NCBI GenBank assembly: GCA_016204275.1
Contig: JACQKZ010000012.1
Coordinates: 1 to 58,259, forward strand
Source: Nanobdellati archaeon
GTDB lineage: Archaea > Nanobdellota > Nanobdellia > UBA10117
Reading direction: 5' to 3'
DNA: 58,259 bases
The translations under genes were made by a program, and so were the position numbers. Below are positions 111 to 32,127 of this stretch, one piece after another (position 1 is the first letter of the stretch; each line of letters opens with the position of its first letter). Below the pieces are notes generated by a model. That model worked only from the letters and a program-made list of their open reading frames with translations, made no database searches and was not told the origin of the DNA.

Positions 111-1514
111 CTATTCCAGGCGTAAATCGGTTTTTACCATGCCGGCCAGCAATTCTTCATCAGTCTGTGCATAGTAAAAGCAGTCCATCAGGCTTCTCGA
201 GTCGACCCGGACAGCAGAGCCAAACACCTGTTTTATGCGCTGGCGTATTTTTTCTATTTCGTTTCCAGTGTAACAGATGCCAGCTTTCGTGTCCGCTCCG
301 CCATCAAAATGCTCAATGTGCCCAAATCTGCCTATATTTTTAAGGCCGAGCGCTTCCCTGCTGATTCCGCCGCAGGCCTGTGCAACAACCTCAAGCTCGC
401 GGATTGTTGCGATTGGTGATGTTGTGTTATGCCGTTTCAGGTTATAATTATTATGATCTGTAAATGCCACGCCGTTTTCTACTCTTTTTTCTTCGGAGAG
501 TGGGTAGAATACGTCCTGTTCCAGATGCCGTTTTGCATAATATTCATATAATACACTTAATGACAGGAAGGTAACTGGTATATCGGTCATGTTCAAAGCC
601 GCAGAAAGCCGATTAGACGCTTGTTTCATACTATTTTGCAGTTTTAGATTCAGCGATGTCGCAAATATATCCGCAGGCCAGCAGAATTCACAACTATACA
701 TATTGGAACATAGTCCGGTTTTTTCCAAATGTGTTATTGTCCGCTCAAGTTTTGTTTGCTCTTCATCAGTTAGCTCTGTTATTTGCACGGGCTCTTCCCG
801 CCAATTTTTATTTTTAACGGACATTATGAATTCTTTTGGCCAGATGCGTGGCATGAGCCGCGTAGGTATTGTAGCTTCATAACTCTGTGGCAGGCCTCGG
901 TAATCCAAATTAACAGTTTTAGTCGGACATGGCAAGCCAGTTGTGCCAAATACATTATAATATATCTGCAAGTCATCTGGCGTAACAGCGCACCGGTCCA
1001 TTAATTGGAGGAAGCGCGTTTTATTGGCTGGTTTTTCAAATCGCATGCTAAGGCCGGCTGGCCCTTCATCCGCAACAAAAATCAGGCGAGTATTCATTAT
1101 GTCCGCCAGTGTTTTGAATTCCACCAGCCGCTCAAGAACACTATCTTCTGTCAGTTTGCCGCCAGTTAATCTTGACACATACATCGCCTTGAGAAGATAA
1201 TGTACGTCGTCAGCAACAATCGCGACAGGTTCGGAGTGTTTTGCAATTAATTCATATTCTACTTTTCCCTTTTGCAGTATATCTTTGTTAAGTTCGTTTA
1301 TCTGTAGCGGCATGCCCTCCATGGAGAGCAGCCTGAGCATGTGCGTCTTGCCTGTCCCGCGCGAGCCAACCAGCAGCCTGACACTGCCGGATTTTTCAAT
1401 GGAGCCTGCAAATAGTGGTGCGAGAATCGCCATGGCTGGCACACCCTCAAAACAACTGCCAATATCTTTTTTGGGCTTGAATTCCGCCCTGCCAGGAACT
1501 TGTTTGCGCATCAT
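111..1514 (-). CDS. P-loop NTPase of unknown function, divergent from the paralog array
   Basis: 467-aa ORF. Walker A LLVGSRGTGKTH near the N-terminus and Walker B-like RLIFVADEGP. No other family motif recognised. TAG stop. Confidence 0.75.
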   Translation of the reverse strand: MMRKQVPGRAEFKPKKDIGSCFEGVPAMAILAPLFAGSIEKSGSVRLLVGSRGTGKTHMLRLLSMEGMPLQINELNKDILQKGKVEYELIAKHSEPVAIVADDVHYLLKAMYVSRLTGGKLTEDSVLERLVEFKTLADIMNTRLIFVADEGPAGLSMRFEKPANKTRFLQLMDRCAVTPDDLQIYYNVFGTTGLPCPTKTVNLDYRGLPQSYEATIPTRLMPRIWPKEFIMSVKNKNWREEPVQITELTDEEQTKLERTITHLEKTGLCSNMYSCEFCWPADIFATSLNLKLQNSMKQASNRLSAALNMTDIPVTFLSLSVLYEYYAKRHLEQDVFYPLSEEKRVENGVAFTDHNNYNLKRHNTTSPIATIRELEVVAQACGGISREALGLKNIGRFGHIEHFDGGADTKAGICYTGNEIEKIRQRIKQVFGSAVRVDSRSLMDCFYYAQTDEELLAGMVKTDLRLE

Positions 1515-1535
1515 GTTTAAAGTGCGGAGACAGCC

Positions 1536-1545
1536 CTTTTAAAGT
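1536..1545 (-). promoter_or_regulatory. putative TATA-like box for the NTPase gene (leaderless geometry)
   Basis: The minus strand reads CTTTAAAAGG, centred about 27 nt upstream of the ATG at 1514. Confidence 0.35.
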
Positions 1546-1594
1546 TTTCTATAGGGATATAATTTGGACTGTTTTATAACGTAGGAATAGAAAG

Positions 1595-1602
1595 TATTAT
1601 AT
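1595..1602 (+). promoter_or_regulatory. putative TATA-like box for the paralog array (leaderless geometry)
   Basis: TATTATAT centred about 27 nt upstream of the ATG at 1625, in the 110-bp divergent intergenic region. Confidence 0.35.
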
Positions 1603-1624
1603 CTTTTAACTGCTTAATATAAAG

Positions 1625-2350
1625 ATGGCTCCGGGCAAGTGGAAAGAAGTATTAGCCGATTTAGAGCCGTCAAATCCGGAGAAAGCCCTTAGACTGGAAA
1701 AGGAAGAAGGTATAGAAGAAACGCTTGCCAAGATGTTTAAAATATATGCTGGCAATGAATATGGTGGCCGCGTCACGGACGAAAAGCACCTCGAATACCG
1801 TATTAGCGATATCAAAAGCTCGGGACGTAATATAACTAAACAAGTTGTGGAAGAATTTTTTCTGCAGGTCGTTAGGTATGAAGATATATTTGTCGCAGGG
1901 CATGGGCATTATTATTCGCAGCGCACGGGCTTGTTTGCTTCTGCGCTTATTCAAGCCTCGTTTGAACAGGGCCACAATAATTTTGAACTGTTGTTGTTTG
2001 GAAACAGGCCGATATCTGACCTTGGCTATAAACTCAGGGGCGAGCCGGCCCGCAGGCTTTCAATTAGCATAACTACAGCTAATCAACCAAACAGCAGGGA
2101 ACCGAGGCCAAGTCTTTGGCTGGTTAATATGCAGTATGTTGACGCAACAATACTTGGGCTGAAGTGTGTGCCGTCGTTTTTAGTTGGCAATTCAAAAGAC
2201 TGTACATTTGCTTCGGACAGCCAGGATATACTTGACGCGATTTCTGAGATGGGCCAGCACCCATGCAAACTGGTTGATAACGATAAGCATACGACAGTTT
2301 ACCAAGGCCGGCCAGCAGATGCTGGCCTGCAGGTCATGGTGGAAGCATGA
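1625..2350 (+). CDS. tandem paralog 1 of 6, QGHNNFE-motif family, unknown function
   Basis: 241 aa. Shares with its neighbours an N-terminal LADLE..EK..EETLAKMFKIY block, SFEQGHNNFEL, LRGEPARRL and YVDATILG. Its TGA overlaps the next ATG (ATGA). Confidence 0.8.
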   Translation: MAPGKWKEVLADLEPSNPEKALRLEKEEGIEETLAKMFKIYAGNEYGGRVTDEKHLEYRISDIKSSGRNITKQVVEEFFLQVVRYEDIFVAGHGHYYSQRTGLFASALIQASFEQGHNNFELLLFGNRPISDLGYKLRGEPARRLSISITTANQPNSREPRPSLWLVNMQYVDATILGLKCVPSFLVGNSKDCTFASDSQDILDAISEMGQHPCKLVDNDKHTTVYQGRPADAGLQVMVEA

Positions 2351-3075
2351 ATAAAAATCTGAAAGATGTATTGGGAGGCCTTGAGCAGTCCCCGCCGGAG
2401 AAATCCGCAAGGATAGTAAGGGATGGACTGCTTGAAGAAACGCTTGCCGCGCTTTTTGAGATTTATGAAAAGAAACTGGCAATGAACTCAGGGTCGGGAA
2501 ATAGGTTTAACGTTGCGCCAAAGTTTTACAATTCGTGCCTGAAGTCAATGCCAAAAAGCAAGTACGATATAACAAAAAACGTTATAGCTGAATTTGCCCT
2601 TCGCGCCGCAAAATATGATGACAACTCTCATTTTGGCGCATACACTGGTTATTTTATCACTGCGCTAATGCAAACTTCGTTCCAGCAGGGCCACAATAAT
2701 TTTGAACTGCAGCTTGTAAGCAGCGAGCCGATTCATCACTTAGGCGCCAATTTGCGTGGCTGGCAAGACAGGAGGCTGGCGCTAAAAATTGTCAGTTGCG
2801 TTGAGTACAAGAAGCGTGATCTGATGAACCAGCCGTTGTTTTGGTTTACAAACATAGCATATATTGACGCAACCATACTTGGCATGAATATCGCACCGCA
2901 GGGCATAGGCGTAAATACAGTAAGCTCTTCATTTACGTCTGACAACAAATACATATTGGACGCAGTTGGCTATCACGGAAATCACACACGCCACTTTGTT
3001 CCGCGGACAGAAGTAAAAGTACCCGACGCCATAGCAAATCACACTCCGCAGATGCAGGCGTTGGCGGTGGCATGA
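2347..3075 (+). CDS. tandem paralog 2 of 6, QGHNNFE-motif family
   Basis: 242 aa. Motifs LGGLE..EK..LEETLAALFEIY, SFQQGHNNFEL, LRGWQDRRL, WFTNIAYIDATILG. ATGA overlaps at both ends. Confidence 0.8.
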   Translation: MNKNLKDVLGGLEQSPPEKSARIVRDGLLEETLAALFEIYEKKLAMNSGSGNRFNVAPKFYNSCLKSMPKSKYDITKNVIAEFALRAAKYDDNSHFGAYTGYFITALMQTSFQQGHNNFELQLVSSEPIHHLGANLRGWQDRRLALKIVSCVEYKKRDLMNQPLFWFTNIAYIDATILGMNIAPQGIGVNTVSSSFTSDNKYILDAVGYHGNHTRHFVPRTEVKVPDAIANHTPQMQALAVA

Positions 3076-3860
3076 TGAACCAAAAACATCTGAAGGAATT
3101 ATTCGGCGATTTGGAGCCGGCGGCCGTGGAGAGGCAGGCCAAGGTAGTTGTAGATGAAGATTTAGAAAAATCACTAAATAATTTGCTGGATGTGTATAAA
3201 ACTTCAGTGGCGTGCGAGATAAATCCATACCAGTTAGATGAGTTCGCATTTTATTCTATCTGCCTGGCGCAATTAAAAAGAACAAGCTGCGACATAACTG
3301 AAAAAGTAATATCAGAACTTGTCCTGCGGATTATGCGGCACAATAATATGTTTAACTTCGGGATAAACGCCGGCCAGTTCGTCACAGCATGCATACAGGA
3401 GTCATATTGGCAGGGGCATAATAATTTTGAACTCGCAATAACGGAGCCACTGCGCGGCCTTGGCACATACTTGAGAGGCGGGCCAGATAAAAAGCTAATC
3501 CTAACAGTAAATAATTTTGCGGCAGATTCAGATGTTCTTAACCGCGTAACAAATTTACAAGGCTGGTTCACAAATGCAGCGTATCTCGATGCAACAATCT
3601 GGGGCGCAGGCAACGTACCAGTGCGTACAGGATTTTTTTTTGGGTATAGAAAATATACAAATGGCACGCAGCCCGTCATAGGATATGAAGCAAAGGACTC
3701 TGTTTTTCGGGTTGATGACGCTGCCATATTTGAGTATTTGACTGCCGCAAAATATAGTTACGACAACGAAGTTTACCTGCTGGAAAAGCCAGAGCCAGAA
3801 GTTGTTGTGATAGAACATAATCACGAAAAAGCTGAACTCAATCTCGCAATTGAGGCATAA
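3072..3860 (+). CDS. tandem paralog 3 of 6, QGHNNFE-motif family
   Basis: 262 aa. Motifs LKELFGDLE, SYWQGHNNFEL, LRGGPDKKL, WFTNAAYLDATIWG. A C-terminal YLLEKPEPEVVV block and a tail ending AIEA. 1-nt TAATG overlap with the next gene. Confidence 0.8.
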   Translation: MMNQKHLKELFGDLEPAAVERQAKVVVDEDLEKSLNNLLDVYKTSVACEINPYQLDEFAFYSICLAQLKRTSCDITEKVISELVLRIMRHNNMFNFGINAGQFVTACIQESYWQGHNNFELAITEPLRGLGTYLRGGPDKKLILTVNNFAADSDVLNRVTNLQGWFTNAAYLDATIWGAGNVPVRTGFFFGYRKYTNGTQPVIGYEAKDSVFRVDDAAIFEYLTAAKYSYDNEVYLLEKPEPEVVVIEHNHEKAELNLAIEA

Positions 3861-4591
3861 TGCAGCCAAATAATAAATTAAAAGAACTGTTCGGCGATCT
3901 GGAAACGCCAAAAGAAAAAGCTATCAAGATAGAAAAAGACAGAGGACTGGAAGAAACGCTTGCTAAGCTGTCAGATATTTACAAATGCGCGCGTGTTTAT
4001 GATTTAGACTGGCCAGATAAAATTTACAAAACATATTTTGATTTGTTGGAAAAAAGAAATATAAAAATAACGCCAGAGTCAGTAGATTACTTTTTTTCGC
4101 GCATTAGTTACGAAGGCGGCGCAGCAAATGGAAGAAAAATGGGGCTGCTCTTAACTGCGATGGTACAGCTGTCTTTCCAGCAAGGACACAACAATTTTGA
4201 AATTGTAATCTGTAATAATCACCCATTGCATTTGTTTGGAATGTACCTGCGCGGCCAGCCCGATAAAAAACTTGCCATCCGAATCGATAATGTATATGAT
4301 GTAATGAACTACAAGGACGGCGAGCCGCACGCGTGGTTTAATAACATAGCATATCTGGATGTTACACTATCAAATGTGGATGCAAACGTACGTACCTTTG
4401 GCAGAAACGCAGGCAGCTCGGTTTTTAAGACAGATAATGAAAGCCTATTTTGTGAATTGCGCGACAGATTTGGGACGGCTAGCGAGCGGACGCCCGCAGA
4501 CAAATGTGAAGTTTACCTGCTGGCCGGCCACGGAGATGACTTAGCTGACGTGCCTGAGCCAACATCAGAAATGCAGTTATTAGAGGCATAA
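3860..4591 (+). CDS. tandem paralog 4 of 6, QGHNNFE-motif family
   Basis: 243 aa. Motifs LKELFGDLE..EK..LEETLAKLSDIY, SFQQGHNNFEI, LRGQPDKKL, WFNNIAYLDVTL. Tail QLLEA. TAATG overlap with the next gene. Confidence 0.8.
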   Translation: MQPNNKLKELFGDLETPKEKAIKIEKDRGLEETLAKLSDIYKCARVYDLDWPDKIYKTYFDLLEKRNIKITPESVDYFFSRISYEGGAANGRKMGLLLTAMVQLSFQQGHNNFEIVICNNHPLHLFGMYLRGQPDKKLAIRIDNVYDVMNYKDGEPHAWFNNIAYLDVTLSNVDANVRTFGRNAGSSVFKTDNESLFCELRDRFGTASERTPADKCEVYLLAGHGDDLADVPEPTSEMQLLEA

Positions 4592-5412
4592 TGAAACAAG
4601 ACAACCTGAAAAAACTGTTTGGCGACTTAGACGATCCAGTGCAAGAAAAAAGTATCAAGGTGACAAATGGTGGAACGCTTGATGAAACAGTAAAAGAGCT
4701 TTGCAGGATTTACGAGCATGTTGCTGACACGCGCGACGACAACCCGGACTTTACATATAAGCTTTGCAAGAGAAATTTGCCGCGGGATAAATATAAAATA
4801 AGCAACCAAGTAATCACTCAACTTTCTACCCAAATTTTTATGTATGATGCAGACATAGATTTTAAGGAAACCGCTGGCCCGTTCCTGACAGCAGCCATAC
4901 AAACCGCATTCCTTCAGGGCCACAACAATTTTGACATTTTATTTTCCGGCGCAACGCCGATGCATTATTTCGGCAGAGATTTGCATGGCTGGCCAGCTAA
5001 CAAGCTGAGAATGAATGTTATGGACTCTGGTTGCAGCGCGCAATCAGCAGGCTGGTTTTCCTATGCGCAGAACCTTGACGTAAAAATTACTGGCATGCAG
5101 CTAGTTCCAAGCCCGCATGCCCAGGTGCAAATTTTCGGGCAGTTTGGGCAAGTTCGGTATTTTACTAAACCAGACGACTTTGCGGTTAGCACAAAAAGAT
5201 GCAGGTTCGGCGTTGATAATAAAGACGTATTTTATTATTTAACAGAAAGATTTAAACTTCAGGAAAACTTGCGGTCAGTTGGCCAGCCATACGTTCCAAT
5301 GCCTGAAAGCGAAAGGTCGGAAGCATACTTGCTTGACAGGCCAGAGCCGGAAGTTATAGTACTGGATTTAGACAAAGCGATAAAACCGGAATTTGCACGT
5401 CTCGCTGTTTAA
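4591..5412 (+). CDS. tandem paralog 5 of 6, QGHNNFE-motif family
   Basis: 273 aa. Motifs LKKLFGDLD, AFLQGHNNFDI, LHGWPANKL. YLLDRPEPEVIV block near the C-terminus. Confidence 0.8.
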   Translation: MKQDNLKKLFGDLDDPVQEKSIKVTNGGTLDETVKELCRIYEHVADTRDDNPDFTYKLCKRNLPRDKYKISNQVITQLSTQIFMYDADIDFKETAGPFLTAAIQTAFLQGHNNFDILFSGATPMHYFGRDLHGWPANKLRMNVMDSGCSAQSAGWFSYAQNLDVKITGMQLVPSPHAQVQIFGQFGQVRYFTKPDDFAVSTKRCRFGVDNKDVFYYLTERFKLQENLRSVGQPYVPMPESERSEAYLLDRPEPEVIVLDLDKAIKPEFARLAV

Positions 5413-5430
5413 TTTCAGAATAATTTCAAA

Positions 5431-6132
5431 ATGGGAAACGATAGTATAAGAAAACTGCTTGGTGATTTGGAAGCCTTCCCGGACGAAAAACACCTGAAGG
5501 TCGAGGCAAATGAAAACCTGAATTCAAAAGTAGTTGACTTGTTAGTAAGTTACGAAGATAGTTTGTGCCGCTCGTGGGGTGATATGACACATAGCAATAT
5601 AAATGACTGTTACGACTTTTGTTTAAAATCGCTGTCCAATCAGTGCGCAGGCGTAGATAATGAAGTAATATCTACGTTTTTAGTACATACCAGCACGTAT
5701 TCGGAGCGTAAAAAGTATTCAGAAATTACTGGCCTATTTATAACTGCACTGCTGCAAACTGCGTTCGACAACAACCAGAATAATTTTGATATTATGCTTG
5801 CCAGCCAGCAGCCACTAAGTTTTTTAGGTCATACATTGCACGGCAGATGGAATAGAAGGCTCATACTAAAAGTCCGGGAAAGCAGCGAATGGAAAATGCA
5901 GTATTCGCCGTTGATTTGGTTTGAGTGTGCATCGCATTTAGAAGTCATGCTAGTTGGGGCAAACAATGTGCAGCTGCCCGCATTGAATTTAGATTGTAAA
6001 TATAAAACTGATGAGAAAAACATATTATTGTATGTAAATGATACTATTCGGCCAATTAAGCGGACCACGGTAGATATAATCAAACGCATGACTCAAGTAG
6101 ACATGATTAAAATCGAAAAACATCCAGTATAG
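5431..6132 (+). CDS. tandem paralog 6 of 6, divergent member
   Basis: 233 aa. Keeps IRKLLGDLE and the overall layout, but the core reads AFDNNQNNFDI and WFECASHLEV. It is separated by an 18-nt spacer rather than overlapping. Confidence 0.7.
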   Translation: MGNDSIRKLLGDLEAFPDEKHLKVEANENLNSKVVDLLVSYEDSLCRSWGDMTHSNINDCYDFCLKSLSNQCAGVDNEVISTFLVHTSTYSERKKYSEITGLFITALLQTAFDNNQNNFDIMLASQQPLSFLGHTLHGRWNRRLILKVRESSEWKMQYSPLIWFECASHLEVMLVGANNVQLPALNLDCKYKTDEKNILLYVNDTIRPIKRTTVDIIKRMTQVDMIKIEKHPV

Positions 6133-6173
6133 GAAAGGCTGGAGCGGGCAATTGCGTAGGAAAAAATAAAAAC

Positions 6174-6662
6174 ATGACAAAGCAAGATTTAGCATATGAG
6201 ATTGCGCGCATAAATATTTTTAGCGACCGCCCAGATGTTCACGTTGAGCTGGTCCACATGGTTTTGGATTCGGAGGGCGGGGCAAGGCATGTGATTCCGG
6301 AACTGCAAAAGGCCTTTGCGAATTGGCAGGCCAGCAGACAGATCTGCTCGCCGCAGGCAGTGGGATTGTACATCGTGCAGGCGCACCCTGAAGCATACAA
6401 TCCGTCTGGAAGCATAACAACTCAGGAAGGCCAAACTTTTTTTGTAGGCACCGGCGGCCTGCCGCATTGGATTTATAACGTATATATCAGCAAAGGTGCA
6501 AAACAGCATAAAGAAGTTTGGGAACTGGAAATTCACCGGAGCAAGAGTGCAATCAAAACAGAATTTTATTGCGTTGGAACGCGGCGCGGCTTAGAAAAGT
6601 GGGGCCAGCGGGCAGTCATGTTTCTGGAAGGCAGGGTAACTAGGCTTCTTTATCGTATCTAA
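6174..6662 (+). CDS. hypothetical protein downstream of the paralog array
   Basis: 162-aa ORF on the same strand, 41 nt after paralog 6. No motif recognised. Confidence 0.55.
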   Translation: MTKQDLAYEIARINIFSDRPDVHVELVHMVLDSEGGARHVIPELQKAFANWQASRQICSPQAVGLYIVQAHPEAYNPSGSITTQEGQTFFVGTGGLPHWIYNVYISKGAKQHKEVWELEIHRSKSAIKTEFYCVGTRRGLEKWGQRAVMFLEGRVTRLLYRI

Positions 6663-6744
6663 TGTATAGCATAGAAAGCTACAAATATTTGTTCAAAAAC
6701 TCTATATATAGATTTATATACTATACATATACTTTTATATACGC

Positions 6745-7191
6745 TTAGATTAATCGGTACACAAGGTCCTTCTTTCTGACTTCTTTTGCAACCTTCATGC
6801 CGACTGACTGGCCTTTTTTCGCAGAATCTATCTTGTCGTGCTCTATCTGCATGCTCGCCACGGTCTGCGTGAAGTTTGTCTGCGGGCCTTCAATGCTGAT
6901 TTTGTCGCCGGCTTTTATCGTGTCTTTTACCTCAATCACGCCGACTGAAATTTTGTCAAAGAAGTGGCTTATCTCGCCAACCAGCCTTTTGTTTGCTGTT
7001 TGGACTACCTTCAGGCCTGCCGGTGCAAGTGCCTTGTTGACTGCTGGCAGGGCAACTCTTACTGCCTGCTTGACAGCCCTCTTCACAACTTTTTTGGCAA
7101 CGCGCTTTACCCGTGCCTGAACCTTTTTAACGGCCTTTTTAGCCATAGAACGATTGAACTTTTTGGATTTAGCTTTCTTTTTAACTGCCAT
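6745..7191 (-). CDS. small protein with a Lys/Ala-rich N-terminal tail and a C-terminal EF-Tu-domain-2-like beta-barrel (tentative)
   Basis: The N-terminus MAVKKKAKSKKF..AKKAVKKVQARVKRVAKKVVKRAVK is strongly basic. The C-terminal segment GVIEVKDTIKAGDKISIEGP..QTVASMQIEHDKIDSAKKGQSVGMKV resembles translation-factor domain II. Start chosen at the internal Met (7191). Confidence 0.55.
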   Translation of the reverse strand: MAVKKKAKSKKFNRSMAKKAVKKVQARVKRVAKKVVKRAVKQAVRVALPAVNKALAPAGLKVVQTANKRLVGEISHFFDKISVGVIEVKDTIKAGDKISIEGPQTNFTQTVASMQIEHDKIDSAKKGQSVGMKVAKEVRKKDLVYRLI

Positions 7192-7358
7192 CTTACACCC
7201 CAAATACAATTAATTAGAATGAGCTTAAATAAATAGTTTAGTATTCACTTGAAAATGAGAAGTTCGAATAGCTGTATGTTAGTATATATTTTTATATATT
7301 TTTATATAAATATCATATGTAAACCAAACCCACAGGCTTCGCCGCATATGCCTGGCGT

Positions 7359-7928
7359 TTAGATTTTATCAGACTCGCCAGATCCCTCGTCATCTTTCGA
7401 GAACTGTGCACCAGATGGAATTGGTGGCGACATTGTTGCTGGCGGCAAGGGCGGCACTTCCTTCTCGCTGTCTTTCGCCGGCTTGTCAAGCCCAAAGATT
7501 TTTCGTTCCAAGCCGTCCAGATCCTCGGGCAGGAGCAATCCAAGCCTGTGCATGCCAATTTGGCCTTGCCCTTTGCCAAAGCCGTAAGCATTCGGGTAGA
7601 CATGTTTAAAAAGCTGTAAAGATTTTTCGTATTCGCTTTTAAATTCTTTTAAATCATAGGTATTACTAAACCACTCTAAAACCTTTCGCGCCCTTTGCTC
7701 CGCAATCCGCCTGCCAACTTTTCTGTTTGGCCCGCCTCGTTCTTTCGAGCTCCACTCCGCACTGCCGCGGGCGTAGAAAGTTTGGTCTGGAAGTTCCGGG
7801 TGGCCTTTCAGCCTGATTTCCAGCAAGCATGTTGTCTCCGCGTTTTCAACGCCGTAAGACGCACTGTAGTAGAAAAATGGCCTGCTTACTTCTATAGTAG
7901 AATATCTTTTCGTAACAGTTGGTTCCAT
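7359..7928 (-). CDS. hypothetical protein
   Basis: 189-aa ORF with an acidic, Pro-rich C-terminus. No family recognised. Confidence 0.55.
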   Translation of the reverse strand: MEPTVTKRYSTIEVSRPFFYYSASYGVENAETTCLLEIRLKGHPELPDQTFYARGSAEWSSKERGGPNRKVGRRIAEQRARKVLEWFSNTYDLKEFKSEYEKSLQLFKHVYPNAYGFGKGQGQIGMHRLGLLLPEDLDGLERKIFGLDKPAKDSEKEVPPLPPATMSPPIPSGAQFSKDDEGSGESDKI

Positions 7929-7990: not shown

Positions 7991-8401
7991 TTAAATATCT
8001 TTGATTTTTCCAGCCTTTACTGCAGTAACAAAGGTTTTTTCATACTCTTTTGGCAGGCCGTCAGATAATAATGATAGTATTGCCTCCAGGCCAGATGCAT
8101 CAACTTCTTCTTCACGAATTATTTTTAGAAGCCGGTTCCAGTACCCGCCCGCGATCATACATTCGTGGCGGTAACCATCGCCGATTTCAGCTATGGATGA
8201 ACCTGATGTAGTATACCTGTATCTTACAGCGTAATCTCCAAAAGCATCTCGCTTAAATGTATTATCATTTTTCTTCGGCTTGTGCAGCTTGCCAGTCTTG
8301 AGATTAAATATGAAATCATAATAAGATTTTTTTGTTGGTTTAAATGCCTCAGCAATCTTATCTTTCGGAGAACTTTTTGCGGCTTTGTAAGTTTTTGGCA
8401 T
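7991..8401 (-). CDS. hypothetical protein
   Basis: 136-aa ORF with a basic N-terminus. No family recognised. Confidence 0.55.
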   Translation of the reverse strand: MPKTYKAAKSSPKDKIAEAFKPTKKSYYDFIFNLKTGKLHKPKKNDNTFKRDAFGDYAVRYRYTTSGSSIAEIGDGYRHECMIAGGYWNRLLKIIREEEVDASGLEAILSLLSDGLPKEYEKTFVTAVKAGKIKDI

Positions 8402-28491: not shown

Positions 28492-31400
28492 ATGACTGAC
28501 GCCCCAGTTACGCCAAATAACGTACTGTCTAAATTAAACGACTTGGCTAGCAAGAAAAAACAACTGGAGCAGCAGCAAGACACAATTTTACGGGCCAAAG
28601 ATACATATGCACAGATGCGGAGACAATATTTATCAGAACTCGAACAAGTTCGGGCAGGCATGGCAAGCTACCCAAATCTTTTGGGTCTTCTGGAACAGCT
28701 AGATGCGCCAGAATTGCAGGGTTTGGAAGAGCGTGTTTCTCCATCGCCGTATCAAATAAATGCCAAAAAAATTATTGGTCCATGTGTCTTGCAGGCAATC
28801 GATGAAGTGCCTGGCGGGCTTACGATACAGCAAATTTTTGAAAAACTTGGCAGCAGGTTTACGCAAGAAGAAGTAACAAATGCTATAAATAATTATAGAA
28901 TTTTTTTGAATGCAGACGAACAGGGAAAGTATACAGTTAGTGATAGGGGCAGGGCATCGTACACACGTTCCTTGGAGCGCGCAGCACGCAGGGCTAGCCA
29001 GCCAGCGCCAACAGCCCCATTGCCAGAAACATCAGAACAGCCCGAAGATGTAGGCCACGTAAACATCCGTAACTCAGTCTTGCGCATGGTAAAACAAAAC
29101 CCAAATATCGACATGGATAGAGTTGTTAGGGAATTGCCGAATTTTACACGTTCGCAAATTCACGATGCAGAATATGTTTTACTTGAAGCTGGCTATCTCA
29201 GAGTAGACAATGGCAGGTATACACTAACAGGCGCAGGTGAAGAAAGGCTTTCCAAGCCAGGCCATGGAGACATGGCGCAAAGAATACGCGAAAAGGCACG
29301 CACAGAAACGTTAGCAGTTAATTCAAGTAAACTTGCGGCCGAGCTCGGTGTTAGCGGCACACATGTCAGAAAAGTTTTAATTGAGGAAGGCTGGCAAGTT
29401 GCGTTTAAAAAATATTTTGTGCCTGGCAGCTGGGTAAGAGGTGGCGCGCCGGAGAAAAGTATGTTGGCAGAAGCTGTAGCCGCTGGAAATTCTATCGCGA
29501 AAATCGAGCGGCATCTTCGGCAGAGGGGCATACGCATTTCTACAGACACAGTGCGCAAATATCTTAAAATGTCTGAAATAGAAACAGAATCACAAGACGC
29601 GGATAAATCAAAATTAGCAGGCCGGCAACACGATACCGGAATGACAAAAGCAATAGCTGAACTTTCGAAGGATCGCGCGATATCCTGCGCAGATTTAGCA
29701 GAAGAACATAACTTAAATACTAATCATGTTCGCAACGTTTTGCGCCGCGCAGGCTGGAAAAATGTATTTCAGAATATTTATGTGTACAAAGATATGTTTG
29801 GTGAAGATGCCGGCAAGGCAATGATAACAAAAGCGTTTGAAACCGGAAAAAACATTGCGGGCGCACAGGAATTTTTGAAAAGCATCGGCATTGATGTGCA
29901 CATATGCCAGATAGCAGAGCTGGCAAGCGAGTCTGGACTTATAAATTTGGAAGAAACAATAAAGTCCGCCGCAAAGGAAATTGGCATTGACTACGATTCA
30001 CTTGCAAGCTTGCCAACCGCAAATGTAATTATGCGGGCCATGCAGGCATTTAAGCGCAATGGCAAGGAAGAAGTTACAGTTAACGATCTTAAACTTGTTC
30101 TGCCAAAAGTACATAACAAAAGAAAGCACTACGTAATATTTGATCTTATAAAAGACAATCTTATTGAAAAAACAGGCAACGCAACTTACAGATTAACAGA
30201 AGCAGGCGAAAAATTTAGTTTAACAAAACAAAAAATTGCAGGGAAAGTGCCGTACGAAATATCATTCCCTGTTGCAGAAGCAAGCGAGGAAGCGGTGTCT
30301 GCTGGCCTGCATGCTATGCTAGAAGAAGGCGCAGGCCTCGAGGGCGTGTTGGGCGCACTGCCAGTTGAATCACAAAAAACCCGCAGCATAAAGCCTCCCA
30401 TCAAACTGAATCTAAGCGAAACGATATTGTATGTTCTGCAAAAGTCGGATATTCACTTGACAGAAAACTACTTGGCGCAGGTACTTTCGCAAAAATATAA
30501 GGCAAACGATGTCTTATCGGAAATAGAAATTTTGAAGGCTAGGGGTGCAATTAAAATCGGCCCGGCAGGCAATCTGGTAGTTAGAAAAAGTGGCCTGCGT
30601 TTATTAGCGTCAAAATTTCACCCGAAGATAAAAGAATCTGATAAAGAAGAGGCAGGCACGCTGGCCAGCGTTCTGGAAGCAGGAACACAAGGCCTGCAAA
30701 TGAGCGAGTTTGATAAAAAAGTTTTTGCAGGCATAGACAGCGGCCCAATGCAGTTGATGTATATATTATATTCTAACGACAAGCAAGAAAATGCCATAAC
30801 AACTAGGTCACAAATTGAAGAATATGTCGCGGGTAAAAAACTTGCATCTGCACAAATCGAGTTATACAGACTAAGGAAGAATGGTTTTATTGAAAATGCC
30901 GGTGGTAAAAATGGAGTATACAAATTAACAAAAACCGGCCGCGAATTTATGCGCAACATTTTCAGCGAAAGATATGTGCATGAACTGGCAGGCCAGCCGC
31001 TGGCATCACCGAAGTTTGAAGCTGGCATTGCACAGCATCTCGAAAAAAATGAAAAAGCTGAATATGCCGCGCTTCTGCTTAGTGGGGAAGGCGGTTCGTT
31101 TGGTTACACTGATGTTGAAAGAATGTTTAGTGACTTAAGCCACGTTACAATTAAGCGTACTTTTCAAAAGTTAGCTCGCGATGGTGAAATAGAGCACGTC
31201 AAAGGCACCCATTCGCAATATTTAAAACTAACTGAACGCGGAGTCAAAGCCCTCGATGATAAATTTGTAAAACTAAAAGAGGCACACACTGCGCCAGCTT
31301 CAGTTACAGCCACACATGCAGTGCCGCAATTGCCTGTGGCGCAAAACGTTCCATCATTGTTAGAAGGCATTGACATCACACCGCCGCCAGCCGTAAAAGC

Positions 31401-32127
31401 CAGCCAGCAATCTGTTAGTGCTGTACCCATACCAGTCACGCCGCTGCCATCTGCAGGTGCAGAAGCAAAGCCACAGCCAAGTGCAGAAAAGAAAAGGGCT
31501 ATTGAGGATAAACTGATGAGATTTTGGAATGACCACAAAATTCCTGTGAGCGAAACACTTGTCGGCCAGATTATGAACGGCGATCACATAGAGAATTTCT
31601 TGGGCGAAAACGTAAAGCAGAGAAAAATCGGCGGAAAAATTGTTTTTGTGCCAAAGGGTGTTAGTGATATAACACTTGAACGATGGCGTAACTTTTATGC
31701 AATAGCCGCAGATGCAGAAAGCAAGGGCCAGCCAGTAATCATGGAGCAGGCAGCAATACTATTGCGCACAGATACAGATACAATAAGAGCGATGACGCAC
31801 GGCCTGAAAAAGAGCGGCTTAATTGGAGATGGCATAACACTCAAGCAATCTGAAAAAATTGATGTCCGCGACCCAGAAACAATACGCAACCGCGTAAGCA
31901 TGTGCCTGCGTTTCGGCGGTGTGCACGCAATAACAACTACAGATTTGGTTAATATGACTGGCCTGTCTGCGGTATCACTTTTGTCGCGCAGCCTCGACTT
32001 GGAAAATACGGTAAATGATTTAATTAAAAAAATATTTTCACCGCAGGACGCGAAAAAAATAAGCATATCACTTGATAAAGGAAAGGGAGGGAAAAATCCG
32101 GCGATAATCATATCGCGTAAAGAATAA
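28492..32127 (+). CDS. giant (1211 aa) protein made of a coiled-coil N-terminus and many winged-helix-like modules, unknown function
   Basis: At least 7-8 recurrences of a roughly 60-aa module ending in a ..G.Y.LT..G.. wing. Examples: GKYTVSDRGRASY, GRYTLTGAGEERL, ATYRLTEAGEKF, GVYKLTKTGREFM, SQYLKLTERGVKAL. An internal duplication covers about aa 262-360 and 385-475 (LAAELGVSGTHVRKVLIEEGW versus LAEEHNLNTNHVRNVLRRAGW). A Pro/Ala-rich linker lies near aa 940-1000. Confidence 0.75.
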   Translation: MTDAPVTPNNVLSKLNDLASKKKQLEQQQDTILRAKDTYAQMRRQYLSELEQVRAGMASYPNLLGLLEQLDAPELQGLEERVSPSPYQINAKKIIGPCVLQAIDEVPGGLTIQQIFEKLGSRFTQEEVTNAINNYRIFLNADEQGKYTVSDRGRASYTRSLERAARRASQPAPTAPLPETSEQPEDVGHVNIRNSVLRMVKQNPNIDMDRVVRELPNFTRSQIHDAEYVLLEAGYLRVDNGRYTLTGAGEERLSKPGHGDMAQRIREKARTETLAVNSSKLAAELGVSGTHVRKVLIEEGWQVAFKKYFVPGSWVRGGAPEKSMLAEAVAAGNSIAKIERHLRQRGIRISTDTVRKYLKMSEIETESQDADKSKLAGRQHDTGMTKAIAELSKDRAISCADLAEEHNLNTNHVRNVLRRAGWKNVFQNIYVYKDMFGEDAGKAMITKAFETGKNIAGAQEFLKSIGIDVHICQIAELASESGLINLEETIKSAAKEIGIDYDSLASLPTANVIMRAMQAFKRNGKEEVTVNDLKLVLPKVHNKRKHYVIFDLIKDNLIEKTGNATYRLTEAGEKFSLTKQKIAGKVPYEISFPVAEASEEAVSAGLHAMLEEGAGLEGVLGALPVESQKTRSIKPPIKLNLSETILYVLQKSDIHLTENYLAQVLSQKYKANDVLSEIEILKARGAIKIGPAGNLVVRKSGLRLLASKFHPKIKESDKEEAGTLASVLEAGTQGLQMSEFDKKVFAGIDSGPMQLMYILYSNDKQENAITTRSQIEEYVAGKKLASAQIELYRLRKNGFIENAGGKNGVYKLTKTGREFMRNIFSERYVHELAGQPLASPKFEAGIAQHLEKNEKAEYAALLLSGEGGSFGYTDVERMFSDLSHVTIKRTFQKLARDGEIEHVKGTHSQYLKLTERGVKALDDKFVKLKEAHTAPASVTATHAVPQLPVAQNVPSLLEGIDITPPPAVKASQQSVSAVPIPVTPLPSAGAEAKPQPSAEKKRAIEDKLMRFWNDHKIPVSETLVGQIMNGDHIENFLGENVKQRKIGGKIVFVPKGVSDITLERWRNFYAIAADAESKGQPVIMEQAAILLRTDTDTIRAMTHGLKKSGLIGDGITLKQSEKIDVRDPETIRNRVSMCLRFGGVHAITTTDLVNMTGLSAVSLLSRSLDLENTVNDLIKKIFSPQDAKKISISLDKGKGGKNPAIIISRKE

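Follow-up and report, generated by a model that had tools for sequence, protein, structure and literature searches.

In couples formed by a MoxR-type AAA+ ATPase and a von Willebrand factor type A (VWA) protein, the metal ion-dependent adhesion site (MIDAS) typically binds an acidic ligand residue of the client. Known couples are RavA-ViaA, CbbQ-CbbO, NorQ-NorD and Midasin (PMC7159879), and vWA-MoxR 'ternary' conflict systems with variable effectors have also been described (Kaur, Burroughs, Iyer and Aravind 2020, eLife; PMC7159879). The window considered here, the whole 58,259 nucleotides of contig JACQKZ010000012.1 from a Nanobdellati archaeon (assembly GCA_016204275.1), carries near its left end an array of six consecutive paralogous genes beside a divergently transcribed gene for a P-loop nucleoside triphosphatase (NTPase). 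It is proposed, with an even chance of being right, that the array is a satellite of a multigene family of DPANN archaea whose products are clients or adaptors with a docking peptide, serviced by a MoxR/VWA machine encoded elsewhere, as opposed to six subunits of a fixed complex that the neighbouring NTPase would load.

On the best-supported reading, the recurrent partners of the family are a MoxR-type AAA+ ATPase and a VWA protein with an HExxH motif, both encoded at other loci. Arrays of family members were found in other DPANN genomes as follows (lengths in amino acids, aa):

L008, Woesearchaeota nzgw42: a partial member, a MoxR-type AAA+ (AAA_5 + AAA_lid_2), a 612-aa HExxH-VWA protein, then three members
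L012, DPANN HY438: a partial member, a MoxR-type AAA+, a 599-aa HExxH-VWA protein, then three members
L014, Woesearchaeota HY636: a MoxR-type ATPase and eight members, one of them a triple fusion, with an 816-aa VWA protein mid-array
L020, Nanoarchaeia: a VWA protein with members on both sides, 3-4 members
L019, second locus of HY438: five members, then two Zn-ribbon/winged helix-turn-helix genes
L009, a contig of 11.3 kb, open at both ends: filled by at least 13-14 overlap-chained members

Across the loci an array has from 3 to at least 14 genes. Each of the four metagenome-assembled genomes (MAGs) with usable context (nzgw42, HY438, HY636 and the Nanoarchaeia MAG) has one array tied to a VWA protein, and in three of the four MoxR is present too, each time as an AAA+ protein with AAA_5 and AAA_lid_2 domains (L008, L012 and L014). 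The HExxH motif and the DxSGS...T...D residues of the MIDAS are invariant in all four VWA partners (L008, L012, L014 and L020), whose matches to VWA_2 stay below threshold (19-26 bits against a cutoff of 27). Satellite arrays that lack MoxR and VWA occur in nzgw42 (L007) and HY438 (L019), and HY636 has an extra member on another contig. MoxR is absent from the 58-kb window according to tblastn with the L008 and L014 MoxR queries and a Pfam scan of large open reading frames (ORFs), and no VWA/MIDAS partner was found there either. The preliminary description of this DNA had pictured a multi-paralog system serviced by an ATPase; the general idea finds support, but the ATPase is a different one, as it is a MoxR-type AAA+ and/or an HExxH-VWA protein that is embedded in the arrays of four other DPANN genomes.

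The DPANN arrays are reminiscent of the known MoxR/VWA couples in that they are embedded with a VWA protein with a complete MIDAS in four genomes and with a MoxR-type ATPase in three. They differ in that the VWA partner has an additional invariant HExxH (zincin-like) domain, that the presumed clients are a whole series of tandem paralogs as opposed to one enzyme complex, and that the window locus has neither MoxR nor VWA.

The VWA proteins of the arrays (L008:1898-3736, L012:2222-4021, L020:155-2170 and L014:8945-11395) make up an unannotated family of their own, with no above-threshold Pfam match and no relative in the PDB by sequence. In the eight-member array of HY636, the 742-aa protein P0021 (L014:4676-6904) is a head-to-tail fusion of three complete family modules, each with a full match to the hidden Markov model (HMM) of the family. 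Directly downstream of the five-member array of HY438 lie two adjacent paralogous proteins of 494-502 aa (L019:4488-7464). Each begins with a CxxC...CxxC zinc ribbon in its N-terminal part and gives weak matches to winged-helix domains, and the two may be regulators of the array.

The members of the family are built to a common plan comprising an N-terminal peptide of about 30 residues, a four-helix domain that ends in QGHNNF, a beta-helix and a C-terminal cap, as seen in alignments of 39 and 150 members and in an AlphaFold2 (AF2) model. The first 31 residues are conserved to the same degree as the signature core, with a majority fraction of 0.57-0.60 compared to 0.25-0.47 elsewhere (39 members, sub-HMM). 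In the arrays L009, L014, L019 and L008 the peptide is the most conserved block of all, with pairwise identities of 0.45-0.80 against 0.25-0.34 for the rest of the protein. It occurs in lineage-specific variants (IKRxDxxGLDDLFGY..DVEN, HIKGPxDDGLDDLIRGYTARKPDEK, PIKKGNxGLGDLVRDM.VPAPERER and LKxLFGDLE..EK) that have in common the core GLxDL(h), followed after about six residues by P(E/D)(K/R), and it carries an invariant Glu. Both loci of the MAG nzgw42 have the same variant.

A constant address on variable bodies, together with a recurrent MIDAS partner, is what leads to the docking model. According to this model the paralogs would be soluble, interchangeable client or adaptor modules, whose constant N-terminal peptide docks via its invariant Glu onto one common partner, most likely the VWA MIDAS site of a MoxR/VWA machine at another locus of the same genome. 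The invariant Glu would be the putative counterpart of the acidic client residue that is bound in the known couples. The divergent beta-helix bodies would provide different surfaces, and the MoxR/VWA machine would remodel, assemble or, via its HExxH domain, process the paralogs.

The helical region ends in TGxFxSALIQxSYxQGHNNF, with TG.F.TAL.Q.SF.QGHNNF as the family signature, and the alpha/beta cap at the C-terminus carries the motif A.NC.FK..S.E.L...C.FYL..dGkE. Between the two lie rungs of the type V.G..G...S.F.I.G, which vary in number and amount to 3-8 in long members. The analysis made use of a window-only alignment (A1), an alignment of the broad family (A3), one of the family with long members (A4, the source of the rung counts) and one of FwdC-like sequences (A6), with family sets of n=39 and n=150. 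When A3 is compared to A6 with hhalign, the two align over 197 columns with 97.7% probability (E 1.5e-12), and an hmmsearch of A3 against the PDB finds FmdC (9sw6_K, E 2e-12) and FwdC (5t5i_C, E 3.1e-11). FwdC-annotated sequences are also found among the family matches, and PF01493 and DUF3737 give weak matches in a few long members. The PF01493 matches, in seven of 150 members, are all sub-threshold (the best has E 9.4e-5 and 22.5 bits against a cutoff of 32.5). These profile comparisons make the broad family a distant offshoot of the GXGXG beta-helix superfamily, which includes the FwdC and glutamate synthase domains. The beta-helix of the wider family is predicted to be right-handed and descended from the GXGXG domain, with few strands left in the window subfamily.

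The window's own branch of the family has LKxxLxDLEPxKPEKQLKV as its N-terminal peptide and is missing the consecutive glycine-rich G-x-G-x-G rungs, so that in A4 only LRGxPDKKLxI and WFxNxAYLDATIxG are kept before the cap. None of its six paralogs matches the Pfam GXGXG model, and they form a trimmed subfamily in which the GXGXG signal is lost. Paralog 4 was modelled by AF2 with the 150-sequence alignment at a predicted local distance difference test (pLDDT) score of 85.7 and a predicted template modelling (pTM) score of 0.82, and shows a short helix (6-11) followed by four helices (28-107), four to five short strands and a further helix (194-205), with a tail that is disordered. Neither this model nor a first one with a pLDDT of 68.6 has a Foldseek match at E<0.3 in the PDB or BFVD, which means that the fold assignment rests on sequence profiles. 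The structural comparison suggested in the preliminary description leaves paralog 4 without a Foldseek match, and the profiles provide the GXGXG link for the broad family only.

The relationship to GXGXG proteins (PF01493; FwdC/FmdC and the C-terminal domain of GltB) raises the question of whether the paralogs could be subunits with a structural role in a metabolic enzyme complex, comparable to the role of the GXGXG domain in formylmethanofuran dehydrogenase (FwdC) and glutamate synthase, where it serves as a non-catalytic scaffold. The broad profile shows homology to FwdC/FmdC and, more weakly, to the glutamate synthase C-terminal domain, the common part being the C-terminal half of the family proteins with its repeated V.G..G...G rungs of a right-handed beta-helix. 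The family differs in its N-terminal peptide, its QGHNNF four-helix domain and its distinct cap, in having no threshold-level Pfam match, and in its variable rung number and large tandem arrays. The peptide and the helical domain are absent from FwdC, with which the alignment starts at family column 85, and the glycine-rich rungs are eroded in the window copies. Partner enzymes are missing as well, since no Fwd/Fmd or glutamate synthase catalytic genes (FwdA/B/D, the GltB amidotransferase/FMN part or GltD) were found in the window or beside the arrays L008, L009, L012, L014, L019 and L020. Nor are enzyme scaffolds encoded in tandem copies that number from 3 to at least 14 at a single locus, and a role as enzyme subunits is considered highly improbable.

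The extent of the family became apparent only in an exhaustive HMMER search, since a word-indexed protein search yielded a single relative outside the window. The exhaustive search, which is of the kind proposed earlier for QGHNNFE-type proteins, retrieved 479 cluster representatives at E<=1e-3, of which 79 reach E<=1e-10. Every member that carries a name belongs to the Woesearchaeota, Nanoarchaeia or 'DPANN group', the annotations of the relatives reading Candidatus Woesearchaeota, Nanoarchaeia or 'DPANN group archaeon', and a scan of a genome collection returned the nzgw42 MAG as its only match. There was no match to phage, plasmid or viral contigs in the collections scanned, and neither the main survey of MoxR-vWA conflict systems nor other literature was found to describe the family or a link between GXGXG and MoxR. 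The gene family is real, previously undescribed and, among its named members, restricted to DPANN archaea. The family had been called unrecognised, which holds insofar as it has no Pfam or NCBIfam model and no literature, but the wider family does belong to a recognised superfamily as its remote branch.

The six ORFs of the window are supported as real, homologous genes under selection. The ratio of nonsynonymous to synonymous substitution rates (dN/dS) of the paralogs compared to their orthologs is about 0.3, whereas it is 0.15-0.23 for the NTPase and 0.07-0.11 for housekeeping genes. At the DNA level the window paralogs have in common only short stretches of motif-coding similarity (64-86%), which implies that the duplications are old and that the motifs were kept by selection. 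Gene conversion as the source of the motif conservation was rejected because long near-identical DNA stretches are lacking.

An alternative is a diversifying conflict or host-interaction system in which the variable beta-helix paralogs would serve as sensors, decoys or effectors under the control of an NTPase, namely MoxR-VWA in the primary loci and possibly the ORC/Cdc6-like NTPase in the window. DPANN archaea are obligate episymbionts, and the family has undergone a lineage-specific expansion (paralog identity 23-38%) with variable copy number, presence or absence of the array between close relatives and a constraint that is relaxed relative to housekeeping genes. In addition, the NTPase diverges most in its residues 200-400, and it is known that MoxR-vWA couples can form the core of such systems (PMC7159879). 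The ternary systems resemble the DPANN arrays in that rapidly diversifying, multi-copy partner proteins go with a MoxR-vWA couple. They differ in being enriched in multicellular bacteria and not in DPANN archaea, and their effector-associated domains (EADs) and caspase or trypsin effectors were not seen in general Pfam scans of the DPANN array loci. The survey itself mentions no GXGXG or beta-helix partners and few archaeal cases (PMC7159879). The paralogs have no toxin, nuclease, peptidase or TIR-like effector domain in Pfam or NCBIfam, and neither they nor the 162-aa ORF that follows them has a PADLOC match. General Pfam scans of the array loci showed no VMAP-like third component, no dedicated VMAP/EAD profile search having been made. 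Surface exposure is not indicated by any signal peptide or transmembrane segment, the orthologs are overall under purifying and not positive selection, the family is missing from phage, plasmid and viral contigs, and the loci are flanked by housekeeping genes and not by defence islands. Such a role is therefore regarded as rather unlikely.

A composite scheme, a previously undescribed DPANN system, is put forward tentatively and at less than even chances. In this scheme a MoxR AAA+ and a zincin(HExxH)-VWA protein would service a large, rapidly expanding repertoire of capped beta-helix proteins that is encoded in one primary array and satellite arrays, takes up 1-2% of a reduced genome and is addressed by a genome-specific N-terminal docking or leader peptide, giving interchangeable recognition surfaces toward the host or viruses. 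The window array would then be a satellite that is gained and lost as a 5-kb cassette and possibly exchanged together with the fast-evolving NTPase.

Within the window the locus and its right-hand edge are laid out as follows:

111-1514, minus strand: P-loop NTPase of 467 aa, with Walker A GSRGTGKT and Walker B-like IVADD/FVADEG; AAA+-like, weakly ORC/Cdc6-like
1515-1624: divergent intergenic region of 110 bp with two putative back-to-back promoters, judged from the sequence and the L003 alignment
1554-6751: indel segment of about 5.2 kb with array promoter, six paralogs and 162-aa ORF; about 140 bp instead in L003
1625-2350, plus strand: paralog 1, 241 aa; L001 ortholog 56% identical, dN/dS 0.33
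2347-3075, plus strand: paralog 2, 242 aa; ATGA overlap with paralog 1; orthologs L001_b 59% and L002_c 55%
3072-3860, plus strand: paralog 3, 262 aa; ATGA overlap with paralog 2; ortholog L002_a 44%
3860-4591, plus strand: paralog 4, 243 aa; TAATG junction with paralog 3; ortholog P0017 61%; the AF2-modelled copy
4591-5412, plus strand: paralog 5, 273 aa; TAATG junction with paralog 4; ortholog P0016 61%
5431-6132, plus strand: paralog 6, 233 aa; the most divergent copy, in which DNNQNNFD replaces QGHNNFE
6174-6662, plus strand: 162-aa ORF that accompanies the array; not a detectable family member
6745-7209, minus strand: Lys-rich protein of 154 aa with a Peptidase_U32_C-like domain (Pfam); backbone gene at the right indel edge

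As far as the layout is concerned the preliminary description proved accurate. The ORF map, an alignment and the family HMM all agree on six consecutive same-strand homologous ORFs of 233-273 aa, the first five are chained by stop/start overlaps (ATGA at p1/p2 and p2/p3, TAATG at p3/p4 and p4/p5), and the coordinates confirm a divergent 467-aa Walker A/B NTPase before the array and a 162-aa ORF after it. The junctions when read directly also show an 18-nt gap before paralog 6 and a 41-nt gap before the 162-aa ORF. Over their whole length the other paralogs are 23-38% identical to paralog 1, and the alignment of six has 16 invariant columns including Q..NNF. All six are matched by the family HMM, with E values from 1e-54 to 1e-65, and no other part of the 58-kb window is. 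A hydropathy scan likewise bore out the claim that the paralogs have no transmembrane segment (the highest 19-residue value is 1.17) and no signal peptide or hydrophobic N-terminus, as their N-termini are hydrophilic. Direct searches with the paralogs in Pfam, NCBIfam, PADLOC, PHROGs and PDB sequences returned no match. The same is true for the 162-aa ORF in Pfam, NCBIfam, PADLOC and PHROGs; a 160-aa gene takes the equivalent position in the L002/P0007 contig. The possibility that the 162-aa ORF is a degenerate family member was rejected, as hhalign against the family gave a probability below 1%.

A TATA-like sequence, TATTATAT, is located about 25 nt upstream of the paralog 1 ATG, and the array would be translated as one coupled operon from a promoter of its own. 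The 110 bp between the NTPase and paralog 1 had been described as a shared control region. Their length and divergent layout are as described, but they appear to hold two separate promoters placed back to back, of which the NTPase-proximal part is kept in L003, where the array is absent; this promoter assignment is putative.

The p3/p4 (3852-3873) and p4/p5 (4583-4604) junctions have the identical sequence ...GAG GCA TAA TG..., and a subfamily-specific ...(h)xEA tail ends four of the six window paralogs and several orthologs. A C-terminal tail conserved across the whole family (...ET/...EA) was considered and dropped when counting showed the tail to be subfamily-specific.

The NTPase is 71% identical to its homolog in L001, 52% in L002 and 42-47% in L003, and has relatives of about 30% identity in other DPANN contigs. 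In nine homologs the Walker A residues G49-x-R-G-T-G-K-T56 are invariant and the hhhhDD (IVADD) and FVADEG motifs are conserved, and divergence is concentrated in residues 200-400. With its N-terminal P-loop, Walker A/B motifs and conserved helix-rich C-terminal segment the protein is reminiscent of archaeal Orc1/Cdc6 AAA+ proteins, and it has a weak match to PF24389 ('ORC-CDC6-like'). The PF24389 score of 24.6 bits is below the cutoff of 27 and covers residues 46-78 only, no Cdc6_C winged-helix match was found in the NTPase, and its middle region is fast-evolving, in all of which it differs from them. NCBIfam offers weak P-loop matches only, a PDB profile search P-loop noise only, and PADLOC only HEC-02A, at E 0.023 over the P-loop. 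A 119-127-aa protein without Pfam match (52-67% identical) lies convergent just downstream of the NTPase, whether the array is present or absent (L001:856-1236, L002:4587-4946 and L003:11797-12180); in the window it would lie just past the left edge.

L003 is a close relative of the window, which makes the absence of the array there informative. Its backbone is 79-88% identical to the window in blastn; the gene with the U32_C domain is 95-98% identical, the epimerase 92%, an L7Ae-like gene 93% and the glutamyl-tRNA synthetase (GluRS) 84%. Homology ends at 6752, just past the U32_C stop codon, and resumes weakly at 1282-1553 in the 5' end of the NTPase gene. In L003 a gap of 171 bp separates the U32_C gene from the NTPase, and the array is absent between these same two flanking genes, while L003 retains both the promoter sequence next to the NTPase and the small gene that lies convergent on its downstream side. 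Direct repeats bordering the indel were not observed. Two small spots in the otherwise conserved backbone are also variable, as a 136-aa gene at 7991-8401 on the minus strand has no L003 counterpart and a 189-aa gene at 7359-7928, also on the minus strand, is 60% identical. The array of L002 holds four copies in the order p3-like, ambiguous and p2-like, followed by a gene that is seen only in part.

These comparisons bear on the assembly put forward in the preliminary description, a fixed hetero-oligomeric ring, filament or cage of six paralogs that are made in equal amounts through translational coupling and are loaded or remodelled by the divergent NTPase. Overlapping stop and start codons do link five of the six genes, and co-occurrence of array and NTPase in the same divergent layout was indeed found in two other genomes, L001 and the L002/P0007 contig. 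Beyond the window and these two, arrays do not adjoin this NTPase. Its homologs occur without a family member at seven loci with unrelated housekeeping contexts, one being L003 and the other six L006, L015/16, L017/18, L021, L022 and L023; three of the array-less loci come from a metagenome scan with the NTPase. Conversely, seven array loci are without this NTPase, and L008, L012 and L014 have the MoxR-type AAA+ in its stead. An adjacent NTPase acting as specific loader or remodeller sits poorly with these loci and with the retention of NTPase, promoter and small downstream gene in L003. Nor are the paralogs kept in a fixed order, as had been stated, since L002 differs in both copy number and order. 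A six-subunit assembly of fixed stoichiometry is at odds with the range of copy numbers elsewhere, which includes a triple fusion. Finally, in the paralog 4 model the short beta-helix seems to be shut off at either end, by the helical domain and by the cap (secondary structure only), and end-to-end polymerisation is thereby made less likely. Taken together, the loss of the array with the NTPase kept in L003 and the copy number and order in L002 argue against a fixed six-subunit complex serviced by the adjacent NTPase, and such an assembly is judged improbable. The gene for the NTPase is conserved in DPANN archaea at this place in the chromosome. It is probably a positional neighbour that does not belong to the paralog system, and a functional link between it and the array is thought quite unlikely.

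Several observations pull away from the proposal that the array is a satellite serviced by a MoxR/VWA machine and not by its neighbour. The three array-linked NTPases form a clade, which speaks for the hetero-oligomeric assembly. In the comparison with L003 (10001-11512) the synonymous divergence of the NTPase is saturated, with a proportion of synonymous differences (pS) of 0.74 against 0.32 for the epimerase and 0.63 for GluRS. The NTPase and array segment could thus have a different or deeper history than the backbone and may have been exchanged as one block, which fits inheritance as a unit and leaves room for a functional link. The divergence suggests either allelic replacement or fast evolution at this spot; other lineage-specific genes are also only 46-60% identical between the window and L003, which places the NTPase at the low end without making it unique. 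As regards the peptide, the QGHNNFE block and not the peptide is the most conserved part in the window array, and the AF2 pLDDT of 71-86 for residues 1-30 is compatible with a peptide that is packed against the body and owes its conservation to structure. As regards the fold, the window-only profile A1 has no detectable GXGXG similarity (0.3% in hhalign against A6), which together with the lack of a Foldseek match makes the assignment of the six window copies transitive, by way of the broad family. The docking and client roles are inferred from gene comparison, and for the window's own organism, of whose genome 58 kb are covered, the MoxR/VWA locus is a predicted one.

DPANN genomes are very small, yet up to 14 or more adjacent genes are devoted to this one unannotated family, from which it is argued that the family matters for the episymbiotic lifestyle. 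What began as a cluster of orphan ORFs is now a defined family with a domain plan, a GXGXG/FwdC anchor, a candidate addressing peptide and a recurrent partner machine. If the docking model is true, the family would represent a new class of MoxR-VWA clients in which many paralogous clients have one common address tag, and the binding of the peptide to the MIDAS would offer a tractable experimental handle on DPANN dark-matter genes. For annotation, the locus cautions that an adjacent NTPase is a poor guide to the function of an array.

The window as a whole is part of an archaeal chromosome, as it encodes transcription factor B (TFB), the Glu-, Arg-, Tyr-, Asp/Asn- and Phe-tRNA synthetases, Trm1, DTD2, an Lhr helicase and two tRNAs, and GC content is even over the region. 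The protein at the right edge of the indel (6745-7209) has a Lys/Ala-rich N-terminal half and a C-terminal half that resembles Peptidase_U32_C and the beta-barrel of EF-Tu domain 2; it is syntenic in three genomes. Further to the right, the plus-strand gene at 28492-32127 encodes a 1211-aa protein with many weak and separate winged-helix or helix-turn-helix matches (Mrr_N, DUF4364, Rrf2, HTH_45 and RQC), which resembles a long multi-winged-helix repeat protein.

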